From: Myxococcales bacterium | GTDB lineage: Bacteria > Myxococcota > Myxococcia > Myxococcales > Anaeromyxobacteraceae | DNA length: 26,874 nt | NCBI GenBank assembly: GCA_038320275.1 | Contig: JBBQEB010000036.1 | Span: 1 to 26,874 of the forward strand | Reading direction: 5' to 3' | In this document: piece after piece, positions 131 to 13,671 of the stretch | Layout of the letters: every line of letters starts with the position of its first letter | Position numbering within the stretch: position 1 is the first letter of the stretch | The notes under the pieces: generated by a model | Seen by the model: the letters and a program-made list of their open reading frames with translations, nothing else | Told to the model about the DNA's origin: nothing | The model's database searches: none | Translations under genes and position numbers: made by a program

Positions 131-1819
131 TCAGCGCAGCGATACCGCCGGAGCGAGCTTCGGCGATTGCGGCACGCGCAGGCCGGTCGCCTCGGCGCGC
201 GCCCGGGTGGTGGCCTCCAGCGCAGAGGCGTCGAGGGCGGCGGCTCCCAGCAGCCCCGACAGCGCCTCGGGGTCGAGGCGGGAACCGTCGGCGAAGACGG
301 CTCCAAGGAAGGAGCCGCTCTCCTTGGCGGCCCACCAGCCCTTCGGGCTGCGCGAGGCGAGGAGCGCCTGGGCGTCGGCGGCGAGGAGCGAGGCGCGCAG
401 CGCGTCGGCCGACTCGAGCAGCGGGTCGCGCTCCAGGATGAAGAGCTCCAGCTCCTCCGGCCCGATCGGACGGCCAAAGGCGCGCTCCAGGACGGGCTTC
501 GCGGCGGCGCCCGCACGATTCGCGGGAAGGCGCGAACGGGCCACCTCCACCAGGATGCGCGCAGCCTGCGTCCTCGCCTCGTGGAGGCGCCGGGCCGCGG
601 AGGCGCGCACCAGCGGCCGGAGCTGCGCCGCCTCCAGCCCGGCGCGCTCGGTGAGCCACCCCGGATCGGACGCGAGGTCGGCAAACAGCTCCGCCCAGGT
701 CTCGCTCGTCACACCGCCCAGCCGCCGGAGCTCGAGCGAAGGCGTCGTGATGCGGGTGTAGAACACGGCCGCTCCCAGCTCGTGCAGCAGTCCGCGCAGT
801 TCGGGGATCGATCCCGAAGGGGCGAACGCGACGCGAACGCCATCCGGCACGCGCACCGGCAGGGCCAGCGCGCGCGGGTCCTTTCCGGGCCGGGCGGAGA
901 GGTCGAGCACGACGCCCGGGCGCCCCTCGAGCTCGAGCCCCAGCGAGGCGAGGGTGGCCTGCGCGTCGGGCACGAAGCGCGATGCTGGATAGGCGTGTAC
1001 GTCCTCGCCCGCCCGGAGCAGGCGCGGCAGGTCGCGGCCGTGCAGCTCCCCGAGCGCGATGCCGAGCTCGGTGCGGGCCAGCTCGCCCAGGATCGCCCGG
1101 TAGGTTGCGTCGGTGCCGGCGAGGACCGCCTCCGCCAGCGCGGCGAGCCGCTCGGGCGCGGCGAGGCGAAGCTCCGCAGCGGCGGCCAGGAGCGAAGGGT
1201 ATCCGAGCCGCCGCGCCACGGCGCCCAGCTCGTCGAGATGTGCCTGGACTGCGGGGGCGCGGCGTCGCTCGGCGTCGAGCCAGCCCTTCTCCAGCAGGAC
1301 CCGGCGCACGGGGTCGCGCTCGCGCGCGAGGAGCCCGCCCGCGCTCGAGGCCGGGACCGCCTTGCCTTCCCAGCTGAGCGCCGAAGGCGCCGCGGCCAGG
1401 CGGCCGGAGGAGGCGGCGGAGCCGCGGGATAGCTCCTCCCCCAGCAGAAAGGCCTGGAGCAAGGACAGCGCCCGTCGCTCGTCGCCCTGCGCCCGGTCCC
1501 GCTCGCGCTTCACGAAGGCGAGGGTCTCGGGGGTGAAGAGGGCCTCGTGTCTCGCGACGATAGGTCCAATCTCGGGGGGCTTTCCCGCCGTCCACGCAAC
1601 CCACAGCGCCTCGCCCTCCGCGGTGAGGAGCGCCTCGACCTCCTCGCGGATGCCGGCCAGTCGGCCGTTCGCGGAAGGGGATGGACCGTCCGTTCCGGCC
1701 GCCGCGCCCGGACCCGCGGCTGCCGCCTGCGGGGGCGCCTCCGCCCGCGGCGCCTCCCCGCCATGCGCGCAGGCGAGGGTGAGCGCGAGGAGGGCAGGGA
1801 GAAACGAGGTCGTCTTCAC
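131..1819 (-). CDS. Predicted lipoprotein, zincin (M3/M32-like) peptidase homologue with degenerate zinc motif
   Basis: ORF 131..1840; likely start GTG at 1819 (VKTTSFLPALLALTLAC = signal peptide with lipobox Cys). Ala/Pro linker, then a helical body with LLHELGAA and downstream ETWAELF where HExxH...E would be expected. Family assignment is by motif recollection only. Confidence 0.7.
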   Translation of the reverse strand: MKTTSFLPALLALTLACAHGGEAPRAEAPPQAAAAGPGAAAGTDGPSPSANGRLAGIREEVEALLTAEGEALWVAWTAGKPPEIGPIVARHEALFTPETLAFVKRERDRAQGDERRALSLLQAFLLGEELSRGSAASSGRLAAAPSALSWEGKAVPASSAGGLLARERDPVRRVLLEKGWLDAERRRAPAVQAHLDELGAVARRLGYPSLLAAAAELRLAAPERLAALAEAVLAGTDATYRAILGELARTELGIALGELHGRDLPRLLRAGEDVHAYPASRFVPDAQATLASLGLELEGRPGVVLDLSARPGKDPRALALPVRVPDGVRVAFAPSGSIPELRGLLHELGAAVFYTRITTPSLELRRLGGVTSETWAELFADLASDPGWLTERAGLEAAQLRPLVRASAARRLHEARTQAARILVEVARSRLPANRAGAAAKPVLERAFGRPIGPEELELFILERDPLLESADALRASLLAADAQALLASRSPKGWWAAKESGSFLGAVFADGSRLDPEALSGLLGAAALDASALEATTRARAEATGLRVPQSPKLAPAVSLR

Positions 1820-1876: not shown

Positions 1877-1967
1877 CGTCCGCCCGCGCCTGCGCGGGTG
1901 ACCGCCCTACGACATCGACGAAGTGGTGTCCGGCAACCGTCCTCCCGCGCCCGCGCGGGTGACCGCC
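1877..1967. repeat. Two 30-bp direct repeats (28/30 identical), each with an internal hairpin, separated by a 31-nt unique spacer; CRISPR type I-E-like mini-array
   Basis: 1877-1906 CGTCCGCCCGCGCCTGCGCGGGTGACCGCC and 1938-1967 CGTCCTCCCGCGCCCGCGCGGGTGACCGCC; period 61 nt; stem CCCGCG/CGCGGG. The repeat itself is certain; the CRISPR interpretation is tentative. Confidence 0.8.
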
Positions 1968-1994: not shown

Positions 1995-3044
1995 ATGGAA
2001 CGTCGAGAGGCCGCCCGCGCCCGGGCCCGGCTGCACGCCGCCCTGCGCGAGCGCTTCGCCGCGCTGGGCTACGAGGAGGTGGAGACGCCCTGCCTCGTGC
2101 CCGCGCCCGGGATGGAGCCGCACATCCAGGCCTTCGAGGCGGCCTTCCTGCCGGAGGGCGGAGGCGCCGGCCAGCCGCTGTACCTGCACACCAGCCCCGA
2201 GTACGCCATGAAGCGGCTCCTCGCGGATGGGTTCTCGCGCATCTTCCAGCTCGCGCGCGTCTTCCGGAACGGCGAGGTGAGCGCTACGCACAATCCCGAG
2301 TTCACCATGGTGGAATTCTATCGGGCCGGCACGGACTACCGGGGCATCATGGCGGACCTGGAGGAGCTCGTGGCACACGCCGCGCGCGCGGTCGCCGGGG
2401 GCACCCGCGTCGGGGGCGAGGTTCAACGCGCGGTCGGCGCGGGCGGTCCGCCGCTGCCGGGCGGAACTCTCGATCTCTCGCCGCCGTTCCAGCGCCTGAC
2501 GGTCGCCGAGGCGTTCAGGTCGTTGGCGGGGGTGGACCTCGCCGCGTGCGGGGACGACCCGGAGCGGCTCCGCGCCGAGCTCGTGCGCGCCGGGCTCAAT
2601 CCCGGCCAGCCGGATGACAGCTTCGACGACCTCTTCTTTCGGGTGTTTCTCGAGCAGGTGGAGCCGCGGCTCGGGGTCGGGCGGCCGACCTATCTCGTCG
2701 ATTGGCCTGCCTCGATGGCGGCGCTGGCGAGGCTGCGCGCCGACGACCCGCGCTGGGCGGAGCGCTTCGAGCTCTACGCGGGTGGGCTCGAGCTCGCCAA
2801 TGGCTTCTCCGAGCTGACCGACGCCGCCGAGCAGCGTCGGCGATTCGAGGAGGAGAAGAGGGTCCGGCGGCGGTTCGGGCGGGAGCCGTACCCGGTCGAC
2901 GAGAGGTTCCTGGCCGCGCTGCCGCGGATGCCGGAGGCAGGCGGCGTTGCGGTCGGCCTGGATCGTCTCCTCATGCTGCTGGTGGGCGCGAGGTCGATCG
3001 AGGAGGTGCTGCTGTTCCCGGCGGCGGGGTTCGTGGGGGGGTGA
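1995..3044 (+). CDS. epmA: EF-P lysine aminoacylase (EpmA/GenX/PoxA), catalytic-domain-only LysRS paralogue
   Basis: EVETP, LHTSPEYAMKRLL, FRNGE-x4-HNPEFTMVEFY, ERFELY-x3-ELANGFSEL and GVAVGLDRL motifs; no anticodon-binding domain. ATG at 1995. Confidence 0.95.
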   Translation: MERREAARARARLHAALRERFAALGYEEVETPCLVPAPGMEPHIQAFEAAFLPEGGGAGQPLYLHTSPEYAMKRLLADGFSRIFQLARVFRNGEVSATHNPEFTMVEFYRAGTDYRGIMADLEELVAHAARAVAGGTRVGGEVQRAVGAGGPPLPGGTLDLSPPFQRLTVAEAFRSLAGVDLAACGDDPERLRAELVRAGLNPGQPDDSFDDLFFRVFLEQVEPRLGVGRPTYLVDWPASMAALARLRADDPRWAERFELYAGGLELANGFSELTDAAEQRRRFEEEKRVRRRFGREPYPVDERFLAALPRMPEAGGVAVGLDRLLMLLVGARSIEEVLLFPAAGFVGG

Positions 3045-4781: not shown

Positions 4782-5609
4782 TCAGGGCGCGCGCCCGGCC
4801 GCCCCCACGATCCCCGTCTCCACCGCCGGGGGCCCCTCGCCCTCGACCCTGCCCAGGAGCCGAAGCAGGCCGTCGAGGATGGTGATGGGGTGCGGGGGGC
4901 AGCCCGGGATGTAGAGGTCCACGGGCACTCCGGGAATGGCGCCGTCCACGCCGTCGTTGGCGACCGGGCTGCCGGCGAAGGTGCCGCCGGAGATGGCGCA
5001 GGCACCGGCGGCGATCACGAGCTTGGGCGCGGGCACCGCCTCGTAGGTCCTCCGCAAGGCGAGCAGCATGTTGTCGGTGACGGGGCCGGTGACGACGATC
5101 CCGTCGGCGTGGCGCGGCGAGGCGACGAAGCCGATGCCGAAGCGGGAGAGATCGAACTGGATGTTGCCGGCCGCGTTGAGCTCCGCCTCGCAGGCGTTGC
5201 AGCCGCCCGCCGAAACCTGCCGCAGCCGGAGCGAGCGCCCGAAGAGCTTCCGCATGCGCGCGTCGAGGGCTCGCGCGAGCCTGGGCTCGTCGCCCTTCAC
5301 GAGGAGCTCCTCGCGCGTGCGCATGGAGAGCCGGTAGTCGCGCGTGAAGGTGATGGCGCCCTCGGGGCAGGCCTCGGCGCAGCCCGGGCAGAAGGCGCAG
5401 CGGCCCAGGTCGAGCGCCATGGTCGGCAGGCCCGCGTCCACCAGCGCGCCCGAGGGGCAGGCGTCGGCGCAGGCACGGCAGCCGTCGGGGCAGCGGGACG
5501 GGTCGAGCACGGGACGCCCGCGGAAGCGGGCCGGGAAGCGCGCCGGCCCGTCGGGATAGTCCAGCGTCTGCCCGCCCAGCCGGAGCCGCGCCCTCAGGAT
5601 CTCGATCAC
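4782..5609 (-). CDS. ehrS: Ehr/hydrogenase-4 small subunit: 2x[4Fe-4S] ferredoxin (NuoI/HyfH-like) fused to NuoB/HyfI-like domain
   Basis: CPDGCRACADACP and CAFCPGCAEACP; SAGGCNACEAE, ASPRHADG, GACAISGG, PGCPPHP. Start overlaps the large-subunit stop (GTGA). Confidence 0.9.
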   Translation of the reverse strand: MIEILRARLRLGGQTLDYPDGPARFPARFRGRPVLDPSRCPDGCRACADACPSGALVDAGLPTMALDLGRCAFCPGCAEACPEGAITFTRDYRLSMRTREELLVKGDEPRLARALDARMRKLFGRSLRLRQVSAGGCNACEAELNAAGNIQFDLSRFGIGFVASPRHADGIVVTGPVTDNMLLALRRTYEAVPAPKLVIAAGACAISGGTFAGSPVANDGVDGAIPGVPVDLYIPGCPPHPITILDGLLRLLGRVEGEGPPAVETGIVGAAGRAP

Positions 5610-7120
5610 AGGTCGTGCCCCGCGTAGGAGAGGTTGAAGCTCTTGTTGCAGAGCGGGAAGTCGCTGATGGCTTCCCCCCGCAGCGCCAGGGCGAGCCCCA
5701 TCCAGTTGTGGAAGGAAGGGTCCTTCACCTTGTAGCGCGCGAAGCGGCCTTCACCGTCCGTCACCGCTACGTGGGCGATCTCCCCGCGCCAGCCCTCCAC
5801 CAGCGACACCGCCAGCCGGCCGGGCCTGAGCGGGGGCAGGGTGGCGCGCACGGGCCCGTCCGGAAGGCGGCGCAGGAGCGAGCTCGCGAGCTCGGCGCTC
5901 CGCTCCGCCTCCAGGAACCGCACCCAGGCCCGGGCGTGGACGTCCCCCGCCTCACCCAGCGCCACCTTCGCGTGCGCTGGGCTCTCGCCAGGGGCCGGGT
6001 GATCCCGCCGGACGTCGCGCCCCACTCCGCAGGCGCGCGCGGCCGGCCCGACGAGCCCGAGCTCGCGGCAGCTCTCGGGCGAGATGGCGCCGGTGCCGTC
6101 GGTGCGGTTGCGGGCCGACGGCGAGCGGAAGAAGAGCTGGACCGGACCGCGGACCGCTGTCATGGACTCCTCCACCACGCCCGCCAGCCGCCCGGCGTCG
6201 GCTGGGCTCAGGTCGAAGCGGACGCCGCCGGGGACGAGCAGCCCCTTGCCGAGCCGGTTGCCACAGAGCTCCGCGCTGGCGTTGAGGAAGCGGGCCCGGA
6301 GCGCGCCGCAGGCGCTGGCGGTGGGCAGGAAGCCCACGTCCCCGGCCAGCATCCCGAGGTCTCCCACGTGGTTGGCGAGCCGCTCCAGCTCGAGCGCCAC
6401 CGCGCGGAGCGCCTCCGCCCGCGGAGGCGCTTCCTCCCCGGCGAGCGCCTCCATGGCGCGGCAGAAGGCGAGCCCGTGGCCGATGGCGGTGTCGCCCGCG
6501 ATCGACTCCATCACGGAGGGCGTTCTCAGGTGAGGCCCGCCGAGCAGCGAGCGCTCCACGCCCCGGTGCTGGTAGCCGAGCACGATCTCGAGGTGGAAGA
6601 CGTGCTCGCCGTGGCAGGAGAAGCGAAAGTGCCCCGGCTCGATGACGCCCGCGTGCACCGGCCCCACCGCCACCTCGTGCAGCTCCGCGCCCTCCATGCG
6701 GAAGAAGGGGTCGTCACCCGGGATGCCATCCGCAGGAGCGCCGGGAGCGCTTGCGAGCGCTCCGGGGAGGGGATGCTCGAAGCGCACGCGCTTCAGCCAG
6801 GGGTGCCCTTCAGGGACGACGCCGTACTGCTCCCACAGCTCGCGCTCGAAGAGCTGCGCCGCCGGCCACTCGGCCGAGATCGAGGGCCAGCTCCCGCCCA
6901 CCTCGGTGGAGAGCAGGTCGAGCCGGCTCTCTGCGTCCCGGGCGACGACGCCGGTCACCAGCACGCCCCTGCCTGCGCTCTCCCGGCCGAAGAGCGCGCA
7001 CAGCCGCCCGCCCTCCGCCAGGCCTGCGCAGAGCGCCTCCTGGAAGGCGGGGACCGGCAGGAGCGGCACCTTCTCGATGCCGACCGACTCGCCGTTGCGC
7101 ACGCCGAGGGCGGCGCTCAC
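5606..7120 (-). CDS. ehrL: Ehr large subunit (HyfG/HycE, NuoCD-like) without Ni-Fe ligands
   Basis: Start GTG 7120 overlapping the upstream stop; FERELWEQYG...GHPWLK (NuoC-like), VGPVHAGVIEPGHFRF, LGYQHRGVE, ELERLANH, VEGWRGE, KVKDPSFHNW; C-terminus DFPLCNKSFNLSYAGHDL. Confidence 0.92.
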   Translation of the reverse strand: MSAALGVRNGESVGIEKVPLLPVPAFQEALCAGLAEGGRLCALFGRESAGRGVLVTGVVARDAESRLDLLSTEVGGSWPSISAEWPAAQLFERELWEQYGVVPEGHPWLKRVRFEHPLPGALASAPGAPADGIPGDDPFFRMEGAELHEVAVGPVHAGVIEPGHFRFSCHGEHVFHLEIVLGYQHRGVERSLLGGPHLRTPSVMESIAGDTAIGHGLAFCRAMEALAGEEAPPRAEALRAVALELERLANHVGDLGMLAGDVGFLPTASACGALRARFLNASAELCGNRLGKGLLVPGGVRFDLSPADAGRLAGVVEESMTAVRGPVQLFFRSPSARNRTDGTGAISPESCRELGLVGPAARACGVGRDVRRDHPAPGESPAHAKVALGEAGDVHARAWVRFLEAERSAELASSLLRRLPDGPVRATLPPLRPGRLAVSLVEGWRGEIAHVAVTDGEGRFARYKVKDPSFHNWMGLALALRGEAISDFPLCNKSFNLSYAGHDL

Positions 7121-8547
7121 GGGGCACCTCCCACCCGCGCGGCCGCCGCGTCGAACAGGTCGCGCAGCCCCTGCGGCAGGTGCAGGCCGAGGAGGAGCAC
7201 GATCGCGAGGAGCACCAGCGGTGGGCCGGCGCTGAGCGCTTTGTCCTCCTGGCCGGGCACGAGCGGCGCGGCGCTCGCGTCTCCCTGGACCACCTGCAAC
7301 ACCGTCGCCCCCATGGCGACGAAGATGATCGAGAGGAAGGCGAGGAAGAGGCCTCCGACGAGGAAGCGGCCACCGCCGAGCGCGCCGTTGAGGATGGTGA
7401 GCTCGCTGAAGAAGACGCTGAACGGCGGTGAGCCGGTGATCGCCAGGAAGCCGGCCAGGAAGAGCGGCCCGGAAAGCGGGAGCCTGCGGGCCGCGCCGCG
7501 CACGTCCTCCACCCGCCTCGAGCCGTAGGAGCGGTGGATGTTCCCGGCGGCGAGGAAGAGGACGCCCTTGGTGAGCGCGTTGCCCACCGTGTGGAACATG
7601 GCCCCGGACGCCGCGCGGCCGCCGAGCCCCAGCCCGAGCGCCAGGATGCCCATGTGCTCCACCGACGAGTACGCCAGCATGCGCTTGAAGTCGCGCTGGC
7701 CGATCATGAAGACGGCCGCGAGCCCCATCGAGAGCAGCCCCATCACCACGAGCGCGTCCCGTGCGAAGTCGCCCGCTCCCGCGGCCACGCAGACCTGGAC
7801 CGTGCGCGCGAGCGCCACGAAGGCGAGGCTGGTGACGCCCCCGGACAGGAGCGCGCCCAGGATCGCGGGAGCCTCGCCGTACACGTCCGGCTTCCAGGAG
7901 TGGAGCGGCGCGAGCCCCATCTTCGTGCCGTAGCCCACCAGCAGGAAGACGAAGCTGGCCCGCACCCAGGCCGGGGCGAGCGCCGGGCCGGCGCGGACGA
8001 GGTCGGCGAGAAGCAGCGAGCGCGGCCCGCCCGGCCCCGCGCCCGCCAGCGCGAGGAAGAAGGTGCCCAGGAGCGCCAGGGCAATGCCGAGGGAACAGAC
8101 GAGGAGGTACTTCCAGGTCGCCTCCAGCGAGCGGGCATTCTTGTAGAAATAAACGAGCGGTGCGGTGGACAGCGTGGTGAGCTCGATGGCCACCCAGAGC
8201 AGGCCGAGGTGTTGCGAGAGCGCCACCGTGGTGAGCGCCGAGAGCAGCACCAGGAGCCCGATCACGAAGACGCGGGTGTCGCGGCCGGCTCGTGCCGCCA
8301 GGTAGCGCTGCCCGTACACGGCGCAGGCGGTGAAGAGCACGCTGGTGGTGGAGAGGACCACCTGCGCCAAAGGATCGAGGGCGAGCCAGCCGCCGAGCTG
8401 CGGGCGCGGATGGAAGACCCACAGCGCCCCGACGCCGGCGAGGTGGAGCAGCGCGCCGGCGAGGAGCACCCGCGCGTGCCGGACCGCGTCCCCAACGAGG
8501 AGGGCGAGAGCGGCCGCCGCGAGCGGGGCGAGGACGAGGAAGTACAT
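7117..8547 (-). CDS. hyfF: Hydrogenase-4 component F-like / Ehr antiporter-like membrane subunit
   Basis: Polytopic; LWVAIELTTL, LEATWKY, GYGTKMGLAPLHSWKPDVYGEAP, KRMLAYSSVEHMG. ATG at 8547. Confidence 0.92.
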   Translation of the reverse strand: MYFLVLAPLAAAALALLVGDAVRHARVLLAGALLHLAGVGALWVFHPRPQLGGWLALDPLAQVVLSTTSVLFTACAVYGQRYLAARAGRDTRVFVIGLLVLLSALTTVALSQHLGLLWVAIELTTLSTAPLVYFYKNARSLEATWKYLLVCSLGIALALLGTFFLALAGAGPGGPRSLLLADLVRAGPALAPAWVRASFVFLLVGYGTKMGLAPLHSWKPDVYGEAPAILGALLSGGVTSLAFVALARTVQVCVAAGAGDFARDALVVMGLLSMGLAAVFMIGQRDFKRMLAYSSVEHMGILALGLGLGGRAASGAMFHTVGNALTKGVLFLAAGNIHRSYGSRRVEDVRGAARRLPLSGPLFLAGFLAITGSPPFSVFFSELTILNGALGGGRFLVGGLFLAFLSIIFVAMGATVLQVVQGDASAAPLVPGQEDKALSAGPPLVLLAIVLLLGLHLPQGLRDLFDAAAARVGGAP

Positions 8548-8549
8548 CG

Positions 8550-9197
8550 TCAATCCCGCAGCGCCGACAGCTTGCCGGTGTCGAGCGAGGAGAACTCGCG
8601 GTTGATGTGGAAGATGACGATGCCCATCACGAAGACCGCCGCCAGGAGGTCGAGCAGGACGCCCGCCTCCACCATGGCTGGCATGAAGTCGGACAGGAGC
8701 AGCCCGAACACGAACACCCCGTTCTCCAGCACCAGGAATCCGATCACCTGCGCCACCGCCTTGCGGCGCGACACCACCAGCAAGAGCCCGGTCCAGACCG
8801 TGGAGAGCGCGGCCGGCACGAGCAGCGGGTGCTGCTCCGGGACCGGGAGCGGCATGCCGCCCGCGTACGCGAAGGCGAGGGCGACGCCCAGCCCGCCCAG
8901 CACGAGCGACGGGAGGAAGCCCACGATGGGATCGACCTCGCGCCGGATCGAGGCCTCGCGCATGGCCCAGGTGAGGAGCAGCGGGATGAGGAACGCCTTG
9001 ACGCCCAGCGCCCCCACCGAGAGCAGGATGACGTGGACGGGGTGCGCCTCGCTGCGCGCGAGCAGGAGCGCGAGCGCGCTGAGCAGCACGCCCTGCGCGC
9101 CGGTGGCGCGGATGACCGCCTTGAGCCGGCTGGAGGCGAGGAGAAAGAAGTCGCTCACGACGAGCAGGATGAAGGCGAGGTCGGTCCAGGCGGTCAT
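8550..9197 (-). CDS. hyfE: Hydrogenase-4 membrane component E-like / Ehr subunit
   Basis: 215-aa hydrophobic protein with QVIGFLVLENGVF and VEAGVLLDL; position in the operon. Confidence 0.9.
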   Translation of the reverse strand: MTAWTDLAFILLVVSDFFLLASSRLKAVIRATGAQGVLLSALALLLARSEAHPVHVILLSVGALGVKAFLIPLLLTWAMREASIRREVDPIVGFLPSLVLGGLGVALAFAYAGGMPLPVPEQHPLLVPAALSTVWTGLLLVVSRRKAVAQVIGFLVLENGVFVFGLLLSDFMPAMVEAGVLLDLLAAVFVMGIVIFHINREFSSLDTGKLSALRD

Positions 9198-9201
9198 CGA
9201 T

Positions 9202-10113
9202 TCACCGGAGGAGCAGGACGAGGCCGAAGGCGGACAGGACCGAGGCGCCGACGAGGAGCTGCGGCACGCGCGAGAGCCGCAGGCGCGCCATGACCGACTC
9301 CACCACGCCCACCACGATGGCGAAGCCGACGAGTGACAGGAGGAAGAGGGCCGTGCCCGCGAGCCCCGTCCGCGCAGTGCCCACCACCACCCTCGCGACC
9401 AGCGAACCGAAGAGGAGGAGCTTCAGCGCGGCGCCATAGAGGATGAGCGCGAGGTCGGGGCCAGAGTGGTCGAGCACCATCACCTCGTGGATCATCGTCA
9501 GCTCGAGGTGGGTGGTGGGGTCGTCCACCGGGATGCGCGCGTTCTCCGCCAGCGCGACGACGAAGAGCGCGAGCGCAGCGATGAGCAGCGCCGGGGTGAA
9601 GCGTGCCCAGGCCTCCGGCAGGGCCGGGCCGAGCATGCCGGAGAGGGAGAGGGCGCGGGTGGCGCGGGCCACGGTGAGGAGGCCGAGGAAGAGCGCCGGC
9701 TCGGCCAGGCTCGAGAAGGTCACCTCGCGGGCCGCGCCCATCCCCTCGAATGCGGACCCGGTGTCGAGCGCGGCGAGCACCGTGGCAAAGCGGGCCAATG
9801 CGAGGAGGTAGGCGAAGAGGACCAGATCTCCGCCGAAGGGGAAGAGCGCCGTGGCGCCGCCGAATGGCACCAGCGTGGCGGCGGCCAGGGTGGCCGCGAG
9901 CCCGACCGCCGGCCCGGCCCGGAACACCCAGGTGGTGGTGCGGCTCGTCACCGAGCCCTTCCGCAGGAGCCGCGCCAGGTCGGAGTAGAGCTGGACCAGC
10001 GGCGGACCGGTCCGGCCCGCGGCGAGCGCCTTCACCCGGTTCACGAGCCCCGGGAGGAGCGGCGCGAGGACCAGCGCCAGCGCGAGGTGGAGGACTGCGG
10101 TCGCGACGGTCAT
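9202..10113 (-). CDS. hyfC: HyfC/HycD (NuoH-like) membrane subunit of Ehr complex
   Basis: ATG 10113 (MTVATAVLHL); GRTGPPLVQLYSDLARLLRK, LDTGSAFEGMGAARE, AENARIPVDDPTTHLELTMIHEVM. Confidence 0.92.
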   Translation of the reverse strand: MTVATAVLHLALALVLAPLLPGLVNRVKALAAGRTGPPLVQLYSDLARLLRKGSVTSRTTTWVFRAGPAVGLAATLAAATLVPFGGATALFPFGGDLVLFAYLLALARFATVLAALDTGSAFEGMGAAREVTFSSLAEPALFLGLLTVARATRALSLSGMLGPALPEAWARFTPALLIAALALFVVALAENARIPVDDPTTHLELTMIHEVMVLDHSGPDLALILYGAALKLLLFGSLVARVVVGTARTGLAGTALFLLSLVGFAIVVGVVESVMARLRLSRVPQLLVGASVLSAFGLVLLLR

Positions 10114-12110
10114 GAGCGCAGCGCCAGGGCGAGGATGAGCGCGAGCAGGGTCGCCACGGTGTAGAGGAGCTGGAGATTGAGCCGGTCGGCCTGGTAGCGG
10201 CGCAGGCGGGCCGCGCGGACCGCCACGATGCGGAAGAGCGGGTCGAAGAGGTGCGTCCGGGCCGGGTCGCGCTCCTCGAAGCGCGCCGAGGCCGAGGGCG
10301 GAAAGAGCCCGCGCGGAGGGGTGATGCGCCCGCGCGGCGAGAGGGCGCGCGGGGCGAGCGCCTCGAGGAAGAGCTGCGCGAAGGAGCGGGCGGTGTACTG
10401 CATCCGGGCGGTAGGGCGGGCGTAGCCGCAAGCCCAGGTCCCGGAGATCGCCGATCCCTGCAGGGCGCGCCGCCTGCGCGAATGGAGCGCGAGGACGATG
10501 CCGCCCACCACCAGCATGGCCAACACCCAGCGCATGGGCCCCGAGAGCGCGGACAGCACCGGCGAGAGCTCCGCCGACAGGAGGCTCGGCGAAAGGCCGC
10601 TGGCCTGGGCGATGGCACCGCTCGCGAGGCGGAGCGCAGCGGCCGGAAAGGAGCCCAGGAGGACGCAGGCTGCCGCGAGCACGGCCATGGGAGCCCACAG
10701 TCCCGCCGAGGGCTCGCGAGCCGCGGTGGCACCCGGGCCGCGCGGCTCCCCCAGCAGCGCCAGGCCGCCGATGCGGGTGAAGGCGATGGCGGCGACGCCG
10801 CCGGCGAAGGCGAGGGCGGCCAGCGCCAGCCAGGCGAGGAGGGCTGTGCCGCCCGTGGCGTCGACGCCGGAGCGCAGGAGCGCGCCGTACAGGAGCCACT
10901 CCGAGGCGAAGCTCCCCAGCGGAGGGAGCGCCGACAGCGCAGCCAGGCCGACGAGGAGGAGACCCGCCGTGCGCGGGAGCCGCGAGAGGAGCCCGCCCAT
11001 GCCCTCGAGGTCGCGCCCGTGCGCCGCGTGCGCGACGGCGCCGGCCCCGAGGAACCCCAGCCCTTTCATGGCGGCGTGGTTCCACACGTGGAGGAGCGCT
11101 CCCGCCCAGGCCAGCGCGGCGACGGCGGTGGCGCCCCGCGCGGACGCGGCCACGCCCGTCCCCGCCGCGAGGGCGATGATGCCCACGTTCTCCACGCTGG
11201 AGTAGGCCAGGGCGCGCTTGATGTCCCGCGCCCCGAGCGCGAGCGTGATCGCGGCGACGGCGCCGGCGGCCCCGATCCCGGCGAGCAGGAGGCCGTGCCA
11301 GGCGGGCGCGGGAGGGAGCCAGGAGAGCGTCCGGAAGATCCCGTACAGCCCGGCCTTGGTCATCACTCCAGAGAGGAGCGCCGACACGTGGCTGGGCGCG
11401 GCGGGGTGGGCCTCCGGGAGCCAGACGTGCAGCGGCACCAGGCCCGCCTTGCTCCCGAACCCCACCAGGGCAAGCGCGAAGAGGAGCGCGGCGGGGACGG
11501 CCGGGGCGGCGCGGGCGGCCGCGTAGGCGTCGAAGCCGAACGAGCCGGCGCCGCGCGCGAGGAGGATGAAGAGCGCGAAGAGGAAGGCCGTCCCGAGGTG
11601 CGAGGCCGCGAGGTACACGAAGCCGGCGCTCCGCACCTCCTCCCGCTCGTGCTCGAAGGTCACGAGCAGGAACGAGGCGACTGCCATCACCTCCCACGCG
11701 ACGAGGAAGAGCACCGCCTGCCGCGCCGAGAACACGAGCGCCATGGCGGCGAGCAACACGTTCTGGAAGCACAGGAAGGTGGGAAGCCCGCGCCGGCCCA
11801 GGTGCGGCCGCAGGTAGGTGCCTCCAAAAGCGACGGCGGGGAGGGCGAGCCCGAACAGCGCCACCTCGAAGAACGCCGAGAGCGGGTCGAGCCCCACCGT
11901 CAGCTCCGCCAGCGGCGCGCTCCAGGGCAGGGAGATCGTCCCTGCCCCGCCCTGGACGAGGGCGCTCACGGCGGAGGCGAGCCCGAGCGCGCTTCCCAGG
12001 AGTCCCGCTCCGGTCCCCGTGGCGAGGGCGACGGATGGCCAGCGGGAGAGGGCGAGCGGGAGGGCGGCGCCGGCGAGGAGCACCGCGACCGCGGCGAGGT
12101 GGAGCGCCAT
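10110..12110 (-). CDS. hyfB: HyfB-like (NuoL/MrpA-type) proton-translocating subunit of Ehr complex
   Basis: ATG 12110 (MALHLAAVAV); FLVAWEVM, GFGSKAGLVPLHVWLPEAHPAAPSHVSALLSG, KRALAYSSVENVG, TWACGY...RMQYTARSF. Confidence 0.92.
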   Translation of the reverse strand: MALHLAAVAVLLAGAALPLALSRWPSVALATGTGAGLLGSALGLASAVSALVQGGAGTISLPWSAPLAELTVGLDPLSAFFEVALFGLALPAVAFGGTYLRPHLGRRGLPTFLCFQNVLLAAMALVFSARQAVLFLVAWEVMAVASFLLVTFEHEREEVRSAGFVYLAASHLGTAFLFALFILLARGAGSFGFDAYAAARAAPAVPAALLFALALVGFGSKAGLVPLHVWLPEAHPAAPSHVSALLSGVMTKAGLYGIFRTLSWLPPAPAWHGLLLAGIGAAGAVAAITLALGARDIKRALAYSSVENVGIIALAAGTGVAASARGATAVAALAWAGALLHVWNHAAMKGLGFLGAGAVAHAAHGRDLEGMGGLLSRLPRTAGLLLVGLAALSALPPLGSFASEWLLYGALLRSGVDATGGTALLAWLALAALAFAGGVAAIAFTRIGGLALLGEPRGPGATAAREPSAGLWAPMAVLAAACVLLGSFPAAALRLASGAIAQASGLSPSLLSAELSPVLSALSGPMRWVLAMLVVGGIVLALHSRRRRALQGSAISGTWACGYARPTARMQYTARSFAQLFLEALAPRALSPRGRITPPRGLFPPSASARFEERDPARTHLFDPLFRIVAVRAARLRRYQADRLNLQLLYTVATLLALILALALRS

Positions 12111-12120
12111 GGGCTGTTCT

Positions 12121-13671
12121 CTACACGACGCGCAGCGCGCCGCGCCCGTTCGCCCTCGGCTCCAGCGGCTCGTCGTCGGAGCGGCGGGAGCGCCGCGCGA
12201 CCCCGGGCCCTGCCAGGGCCTCGCCCGGCGCGGCCTCGGCGACGAGGCGAAGCGCGCCCTCGACGGCATCGCCCAGGGCCCGCAGCTCGGGCCTTCCAGG
12301 CGGGCCGAAGTCGCCCTGCAGCACGCGCCCGATCTCGAGCCCGATCCGCAGCCGGAGCCGGGGTGGCTCGCGCGTCGCCTCCAGCTCCGCCGCGCGCTCG
12401 AGCATGGAGCGGGCGCATCGCAGCGCGCGCGCCCCGCCATCGGGGCGAGAGACGGGGGCGCCGAGCACCGCCAGGAGGCCGCCATCGAGCCGCGCCTCGA
12501 CGGTCCCGTTCTCCGCCCAGGCGATCGCCGCCAGCGCCGCCTGTACCGCCACGACGCGCTCCCCCACCTCCGCGGGCGGGCGAGCGGTGGCGAGCGCGTC
12601 CACGCCTTCCAGCGCCGCTGCCAGCACCGTCGCGTCCTCCCGGACGACCGGCTCGAGCGCGCGCTGCCCGTCCTCTCCCTCCAGGAGCGGCCCCGCGGCG
12701 TCGGGCGGAAGGTGGCGCAGGAGGCGTGCGCGCAGCTCGCCCGCGGGGGACGGCGCCGCGCCGCGCCGCGCGCGCTCGACCGCCAGCGCCGCGTGGAACC
12801 CGACGAGGGTCGCCACGTCGAGGTCCTCGGCGGTGAAGGGCTCGCCGCGCAGACGCTCGAGCACGAGCACGCCCAGGATGCGATTGTCGGCCCAGATGGG
12901 CGCACAGATGGAGGAGCGGATGCCCGCCCCGGCGCCTCTCGCCGGCAGGTCCGCGCCGTGCGGGTCGAGGACGAGAATCCCCGCGCGGCTGCGCAGGGTG
13001 GCCTGCACGACGGTGGCGTCAGGCCGGGCAGGCGCGTCCGCGGGCTCGGAGAGCACGGGGGCGGGCTCGCCATCCTCTCCGATGAGGAGCGCGCTCGATC
13101 GGTGCGCCGCGAGCGCCGCCGAGAGCACGACCAAGATCTGCCGGAGGGATTCCTCCGGGGAGGAGGCCGAGGCGAGGGCGCGCGCCAGCTCGTTGAGGAC
13201 GCCGATGTGGCGCCGCGCCGTCCCCATCGCCTCGTCGGGCCCGCGCAGCGTGTCCCTTCCGGCCCGCTCCTGCCGCTCGCCCGCGGCTGGAGCCCGCCGG
13301 CCCGAGGTGTCGCTCGACAGGTCCGCAATGTAGCGAACGACGGTGCGCTGCCCGGAGAGGACACCGCTGGGCTCGCTCGCCTGGGACTCGGCGCGGAGCT
13401 CCGCGAGCGTGCGGCCGAAGCGCAGCCTCGCGCCGGGCTCCACCGGCGACTCGTGGACCCGCTCCTCGTTGACGAAGGTGCCGTTGCGGCTGTCGAGATC
13501 GACGACCCAGAGCTCCTCGCCGCGCCGCTCGAAGAGCGCGTGCATGCTGGAGACCCAGCCGTCGGAGATCTGGAGGTGGCACTCCGGGGAACGGCCCAGC
13601 ACCGTAGGCACGTCCGGGAGGGCGTAGACGGTTCCGCCGCACGTTCCGTTCACGACGAAGAGCTCGGCCAC
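12121..13671 (-). CDS. FHA-GAF-class III adenylate/guanylate cyclase-like protein (cyclase catalytic residues degenerate)
   Basis: GTG 13671 with GAGGT SD; FHA LGRSPEC...VSSMHA...DLDSRNGTFVN; GAF IRSSICAPI...PFTAEDL; cyclase-fold remnants LAVLGAP, LRIGLEIG, LGDAVEGALRL. Confidence 0.85.
   Translation of the reverse strand: MAELFVVNGTCGGTVYALPDVPTVLGRSPECHLQISDGWVSSMHALFERRGEELWVVDLDSRNGTFVNEERVHESPVEPGARLRFGRTLAELRAESQASEPSGVLSGQRTVVRYIADLSSDTSGRRAPAAGERQERAGRDTLRGPDEAMGTARRHIGVLNELARALASASSPEESLRQILVVLSAALAAHRSSALLIGEDGEPAPVLSEPADAPARPDATVVQATLRSRAGILVLDPHGADLPARGAGAGIRSSICAPIWADNRILGVLVLERLRGEPFTAEDLDVATLVGFHAALAVERARRGAAPSPAGELRARLLRHLPPDAAGPLLEGEDGQRALEPVVREDATVLAAALEGVDALATARPPAEVGERVVAVQAALAAIAWAENGTVEARLDGGLLAVLGAPVSRPDGGARALRCARSMLERAAELEATREPPRLRLRIGLEIGRVLQGDFGPPGRPELRALGDAVEGALRLVAEAAPGEALAGPGVARRSRRSDDEPLEPRANGRGALRVV

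Follow-up and report, generated by a model that had tools for sequence, protein, structure and literature searches.

A solitary 28+33+28 repeat unit in front of epmA in a Myxococcales genome and its probable origin by off-target type I-E spacer integration

The repeat of the E. coli type I-E array is 28 bp long and, according to the accessible part of Goren et al. 2016 (PMC5039180), its inverted repeats are essential while the flanks and the loop are dispensable; in the same text the anchors precede the insertion point, IR1 ending at a distance of 16 nt from it and IR2 at a distance of 8 nt. Integration is described as requiring IHF and a leader (PMC5224486, available portion). Non-canonical integration by the E. 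coli type I-E Cas1-Cas2 gives rise to neo-CRISPR arrays (Nivala, Shipman and Church 2018, PMC5832444, as related in the available portions of 10.1101/148544, PMC7054753 and PMC6698737); the integration mechanism itself is thus already published. The available part of 10.1101/148544 calls the natural frequency of array birth by off-target integration unclear and gives circumstantial evidence from two species, and off-target acquisition is one of three origins proposed for isolated arrays (Shmakov et al. 2020, PMC7757702, as cited in PMC13142298). Neither a cross-phylum census of such events nor a motif of the kind described below appeared in the literature listings searched, whose scope did not extend to subscription papers and supplements, which may hold both.

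The window analysed here comprises positions 1-26,874 of contig JBBQEB010000036.1 of a Myxococcales bacterium of the Anaeromyxobacteraceae (assembly GCA_038320275.1). In front of epmA it carries a repeat-spacer-repeat unit which an earlier note had taken for an orphan type I-E-like mini-array. We consider, with a probability of roughly 80%, that the unit results from one off-target type I-E spacer integration, a 'neo-CRISPR' scar that is probably inert.

Geometry and genomic setting of the repeat unit

Comparison of positions 1877-1906 with 1938-1967 gave 28 identical bases out of 30 at a period of 61 nt, as the earlier note had claimed, and the palindrome CCCGCG-N4-CGCGGG was present in both copies, with both mismatches outside the stem. 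The 31-nt middle, described there as lower in GC than its surroundings, indeed has 58% GC as compared with 74% in the intergenic region and also in the window. We read the informative register, however, as 28+33+28, which corrects the 30-nt repeats of that note. Copy 1 (1877-1904) consists of 6 nt, the perfect palindrome core (1883-1898) and another 6 nt, the same 6+16+6 register as in the GTDB loci described below, with CCCGCG at positions 7-12 on both strands; a unique 33-nt insert, the putative spacer, occupies 1905-1937 and is followed by copy 2 (1938-1965, core at 1944-1959), identical to copy 1 at 26 of 28 positions. The match runs 2 nt past the 28-nt unit on one side only (30 nt in total), and these final two bases probably agree by chance.

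The host assembly (4.1 Mb in 343 contigs, 71.7% GC, 90.7% complete) holds no third copy of the repeat at up to 6 mismatches, and its CCCGCG-N4-CGCGGG cores number 14, two of them being the present pair. Screening for non-simple pairs with at least 26/28 identity and background flanks at periods of 50-74 nt yielded seven pairs genome-wide, two of them with period 61, so a pair of such quality is rare, not unique. Positions 1500-2400 are identical, with no difference, in a contig from the probable source sequencing run; this contig may itself be the source, and the agreement therefore excludes only an error of binning or assembly. Among the sequencing runs, those with small shares gave coverage limited to epmA, and the single run that contains the stretch is of DNA, none being of RNA.

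Several other repeats were observed in the same genome. A second 28+33+28 unit, 27/28 identical, lies at C11:38329-38417 (L022); its GC palindrome fits the ruler motifs less well, and it is a candidate second off-target scar. An unrelated perfect 28-nt duplication with a 30-nt middle and a period of 58 was found at C53:21851, so other routes yield look-alikes too. Many long tracts of a 6-nt simple repeat of the CGACCT/CGACCG type occur on host contigs C7, C9, C20, C31, C33, C35, C79, C86 and C93. Within the window, a third CCCGCG..CGCGGG palindrome with a 6-nt loop (1841-1858) precedes the first core by 42 nt; it does not fit the 61-nt register and is absent from relatives.

Downstream of the unit, epmA (1995-3044, + strand) encodes an intact EF-P lysine aminoacylase (TIGR00462, 372 bits against a cut-off of 287; ATG at 1995), and the divergent gene at 131-1819 (- strand) is conserved, being syntenic in 14 of 19 relatives. 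Searches of Pfam and NCBIfam gave no match for the latter; its N-terminus resembles a lipoprotein signal. Further away, an operon at 4782-13364 (- strand) encodes complex-I/Mrp-like subunits (Oxidored_q6 with Fer4, 49/30-kDa, two Proton_antipo_M, NADHdh), which we take to be a likely group-4 hydrogenase-type complex.

A TANNNT hexamer resembling a -10 element lies at 1983-1988 on the + strand, downstream of the unit and just before the epmA start, and another at 1827-1832 on the - strand, facing away from the unit, would serve the divergent gene. Of 14 syntenic relatives, 9 have such a hexamer at a distance of 12-22 nt upstream of the projected epmA start, and all 14 have one on the reverse strand. 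The proposal that the second repeat overlaps the epmA -35 is plausible as far as position goes, with a 4/6 hexamer at 1959-1964 standing 18 nt before the TANNNT of 1983-1988; it is weak in that a strict sigma-70 consensus scan found no promoter in the region and placed 1983-1988 below its threshold. Since that scan finds nothing, we propose only tentatively that the promoters of both genes face outward and that the unit sits in untranscribed DNA between them.

The unit is not conserved in relatives. Among 19 epmA loci compared, 14 of them syntenic, none has the palindrome or a direct repeat within 230 nt before epmA, and when 91 further family genomes were searched for the pattern at 3 mismatches, three matches were obtained, all single-copy and unrelated. 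For the comparison with a single-copy (empty) allele, the relatives are too distant: the palindrome itself is missing in all 19 loci.

The host type I-E array and the origin of the unit

A scan for repeat pairs revealed a canonical array in the same assembly at C118:11352-12362 (L021), in which a 28-nt repeat occurs 17 times without variation and all 16 spacers measure 33 nt; the contig end cuts it at its leader side. Arrays of this repeat (up to 2 mismatches) were found in three kin genomes, with cas1 on the same contig in all three, and in one of them (G067) cas3, cse2, cas7, cas5, cas6e, cas1 and cas2 precede the array, which identifies the host repeat as type I-E. The search for type I-E cas genes elsewhere in the assembly, which the earlier note had suggested, found none of Cas1, Cas2, Cas5, Cas6e, Cas7e, Cse1 and Cse2; tblastn with the cas ORFs of G067 gave no match in the assembly either, and a single Cas3_HD match remained below the cut-off (E 4e-4). 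Because the assembly is 90.7% complete, the operon that kin keep beside this array is in the host either unassembled or lost. The window likewise has no cas family among its 23 ORFs, in agreement with that note.

The type I-E likeness raised there is upheld by unit length, spacer length and ruler-motif position, all of which equal those of the host's own array. The duplication and insert lengths (28+33) are the repeat and spacer lengths of all 16 C118 units, and CCCGCG takes positions 7-12 of 28 in the C118 repeat. Measured against the E. coli anchors in the accessible text of PMC5039180, CCCGCG of the duplicated site ends, on either strand, at a distance of 16 nt from the border, with 6/7 bases matching IR1 and 4/5 matching IR2 (16-20) in the corresponding positions. 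The 33-nt insert has a GC content of 0.61; the spacers of the host array span 0.58-0.88.

The similarity to the host array does not extend to the repeat sequence. The two copies share 17 and 18 of 28 bases with the C118 repeat, and outside the array the genome holds 2,238 28-mers at 18/28 and 645 higher. Gapped alignment to nine canonical type I-E repeats scored at chance level, being equalled by 25% (copy 2) and 49% (copy 1) of 1000 controls with the core kept and random flanks. On these grounds the duplicated sequence is best read as host DNA copied once and not as a derived CRISPR repeat. As regards the features of a canonical type I-E array, we found two copies only, no leader and, at up to 2 mismatches between 1781 and 2000, no IHF consensus. 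A longer hairpin of the reconstructed single site was dropped as evidence because shuffled flanks fold as well (148 and 235 of 1000 shuffles).

We propose the following course of events. The lineage would have held one copy of the palindrome within the divergent epmA promoter region, and the host type I-E Cas1-Cas2 would have docked on CCCGCG, offered at positions 7-12 on both strands, joining a 33-nt prespacer at a pair of nicks with a spacing of 28 nt, after which gap repair would have duplicated the 28 nt. The insertion may have been tolerated because it lies between outward-facing promoters and leaves the epmA -35/-10 spacing intact, and two substitutions would have been gained since then. 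With no IHF site, leader or predicted transcript across it, the unit is predicted neither to expand nor to give a crRNA, and as a scar it is probably neutral.

Several observations count against this integration. The assembly contains no cas gene, the match is 30 nt long, the reconstructed single site has no folding advantage over versions with shuffled flanks, and neither a protospacer nor an empty allele was found. The protospacer with PAM was sought in IMG/VR, phages, plasmids, 300 genomes of the order and the host's own genome, where the best match of the insert was 25/33; phages and plasmids gave only matches with E>=0.2. The 16 spacers of the host array likewise have no match in their own genome. 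The spacer was also considered as structured RNA or DNA, and rejected (z of -0.58 and +1.2).

The 30-nt match is what an ordinary local duplication might leave, in which, at a GC hairpin, replication slippage or a repair event copied some 30 nt over a distance of 61 nt and CRISPR enzymes played no part. This origin, which we consider unlikely, would suit an assembly without cas genes and a region rich in hairpins, given the third palindrome upstream, and five of the pairs with at least 26/28 identity in this genome have other periods, among them the perfect 28-mer at period 58. Slippage, however, usually copies the entire unit; at this site the middle is not repeated (identity 0.32) and has a composition of its own. 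Local duplication also predicts neither the period of 61, the 33-nt middle and the peak of such periods across GTDB, nor a copy centred on one of just 13 CCCGCG-N4-CGCGGG sites in 4.1 Mb.

The flank controls also bear on the possibility that the unit is what remains of a genuine type I-E array with a leader, from which the cas genes and all but two repeats have been lost. The repeat does align, with gaps, to actinobacterial type I-E repeats, and the two substitutions could indicate decay; given the core, however, random flanks score as well at the rates stated above, and the site belongs to a promoter region that is short and conserved and has neither a leader nor an IHF site. Furthermore, no array with this repeat was found in IMG/VR, in the 91 family genomes or in metagenomes, where the exact repeat core gave 22 matches, all single copies and mostly within coding sequence. 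A relic array, which the earlier note had also suggested, is therefore not the best fit, and we hold it to be very improbable.

A functional crRNA-like trans regulator was a further suggestion of that note; it would be either a mini-array of the type described by Shmakov or a Racr-like decoy, and we give it a slimmer chance still. Starting at 1878 and reading the + strand, one finds in the unit the 5-6-4-6-8 layout of a type I-E repeat with intact stems, and the host has a type I-E array; cleavage by Cas6e after each stem could then yield an RNA of 8+32+21 nt, conceivable because the two bases past the duplication also match. Such a guide would be shifted by one base relative to the register of the inferred PAM, its best seed runs (10-13) were no better than those of 12 shuffled guides (9-13), and no Cas6 was found. 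Moreover, the published regulatory mini-arrays, as far as the available text of 10.1101/2023.03.03.530964 describes them, lie in or near cas loci, are cognate-like and conserved, and have a PAM-flanked seed target; the present unit lies away from cas genes, matches the host repeat at 17-18 of 28 positions, is not conserved and has no target beyond shuffled controls in an assembly from which the cas promoter is missing. Both inferred promoters point away from it, and Rfam gave no family, with one snoRNA match at E=1.3.

CGTC-tagged dispersed palindromes form a REP-like family, and both copies do start with CGTC followed by the hairpin, copy 2 overlapping the weak -35-like hexamer; a REP-like element or tandem operator sites controlling epmA, the latter another suggestion of the earlier note, are nevertheless scarcely credible, as the genome holds two copies only, no abundant family emerged among 830 CGTC-hairpin matches, and none of the 14 syntenic relatives has the sequence in this promoter.

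Loci of the same shape across bacterial phyla

To place the unit in a wider frame, we searched GTDB, with one genome per species, for two CCCGCG..CGCGGG cores 40-50 nt apart. The search yielded at least 121 loci. Of those listed, one duplicate and 27 whose loops measure 3 or 5 nt were set aside, and the remaining 93 were analysed. A period of 61 was found in 33 of the 93 listed loci, and ten other periods account for 2-12 each; the excess among the listed loci has a p of 3e-12 against a uniform distribution, the rows not being independent. Centred duplications of 26-31 nt occurred in 17 of the 33 listed loci at period 61 as compared with 9 of the 60 elsewhere, and perfect 28-mers in 10 and 3 of them, respectively. 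The hosts of the listed loci belong to Actinomycetota, Chloroflexota, Acidobacteriota, Planctomycetota, Spirochaetota, Proteobacteria and others, and the flanks are private to the genome at each listed locus.

The borders of the duplication are sharp. In the 28 listed period-61 loci that passed an automatic non-tandem filter, copy identity was 0.75-0.96 over the six bases on each side of the core; at the seventh flank base it fell to 0.29 and 0.54, the latter inflated because the sides were sorted by length, and further out it was at most 0.39. Among 25 listed loci chosen by eye, after removal of eight that are whole-unit tandems, long arrays or REP-like, the copies were 28/28 identical in 12, and identity was 0.80-1.0 inside and 0.16-0.40 outside the unit, the core being 1.0 by construction.

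In a betaproteobacterial MAG (L148:295-383, JANXYG010000049.1) a PAS-GGDEF gene is broken by a 33-nt insert that stands between two perfect 28-nt copies; the end of the PAS part and the start of the GGDEF part share nine codons, and their frames are shifted by 61 nt. Because this unit interrupts one gene, it points to such units being insertions with target duplication, the interrupted gene standing in as evidence of the empty state. For another analog (L099), an empty allele was sought in 25 relatives, and their intergenic DNA was not alignable.

We then compared type I-E markers among the matches listed, leaving out 14 control loci from genomes already counted. Cas6e was present in 14 of 32 period-61 genomes as against 8 of 46 genomes with other periods (Fisher p 0.02), type I-E arrays in 13 of 32 and 9 of 46 (p 0.07, not significant), and at least one of these two markers in 16 of 32 as against 11 of 46 (p 0.03). 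The enrichment of type I-E markers in period-61 genomes is modest, in a comparison where many genomes are incomplete and some controls with periods of 60-63 resemble the same kind of scar. The 16 of 32 period-61 genomes among the matches listed that show neither Cas6e nor a type I-E array count against the integration reading. A control with the reversed palindrome, centres excluded, gave no forward and no reversed locus in 400 genomes of the host's own phylum, and no forward and one reversed in 400 genomes of another class; it is uninformative because both motifs are too rare at the 400-genome scale.

Two further loci, L206 (G168:C2 near 17876) and L207 (G166:C1 near 4276995), are intergenic arrays of three and four repeats with private repeat sequences and 61-nt spacing, and G168 has a canonical type I-E array elsewhere. 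These two may be scars that expanded, and are candidate neo-arrays. We also observed an array (L208, G132:C2 near 6603496) whose repeat shifts along its length from type I-E-like units to a different repeat with a variable GC-run length, and a type I-E-type array on a Kitasatospora linear plasmid (L046:7700-8450, NZ_CP020568.1) with no annotated cas gene within 8 kb.

We regard it as an evenly balanced proposition that type I-E Cas1-Cas2, when it integrates without a leader, prefers the perfect CCCGCG-N4-CGCGGG palindrome as its landing site in bacteria of different phyla and that these loci form a class of natural scars, some of them expanded to arrays of 3-4 repeats. The motif-defined class with its sharp 28-nt borders matters more than the single locus: a simple motif retrieves about two dozen candidate natural cases from unrelated phyla among the matches listed, which makes off-target array birth countable and offers a testable target rule, the symmetric IR1 motif. 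If the proposition is true, the class would be a natural record of newborn CRISPR arrays and of new repeat sequences, and Cas1-Cas2 would act as an insertional mutagen, as in the interrupted PAS-GGDEF gene. As a practical lesson, two-repeat units of 61 nt should be checked for scar origin before guide RNAs are annotated.

Comparison with described systems

The cited sources are compared here by their available portions. Like regulatory mini-arrays (10.1101/2023.03.03.530964) and Racr solitary repeats (PMC10651486), the unit has two repeats around a spacer-sized stretch; unlike them, it is in neither a cas locus nor a phage, is not cognate-like or conserved, and has no PAM-flanked target. With isolated or orphan arrays (PMC7757702) it shares a position away from cas genes, whereas its repeat is no recognised CRISPR repeat, it has two copies, and it bears no sign of mobile-element transfer.

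The canonical type I-E repeat (PMC5039180) agrees with the unit in its 28-nt length, the 61-nt period and the spacing of the motifs from the far junction, CCCGCG ending 16 nt and a near-match to GCGGG 8 nt ahead of it. The canonical stem is CCCCGC-N4-GCGGGG centred at 13.5, whereas the unit has a perfect CCCGCG-N4-CGCGGG centred at 14.5, flanks of local DNA, and no leader, IHF site or cas genes.

The neo-CRISPR arrays of Nivala 2018 differ from the unit in being induced, whereas the latter is natural and fixed, lies in a high-GC environmental genome and is two substitutions old, with integrase gene, protospacer and empty allele not seen. They resemble it in a spacer-sized insert, a repeat-sized duplication of host DNA and a repeat-like site off the array, arranged as two repeats around one spacer.
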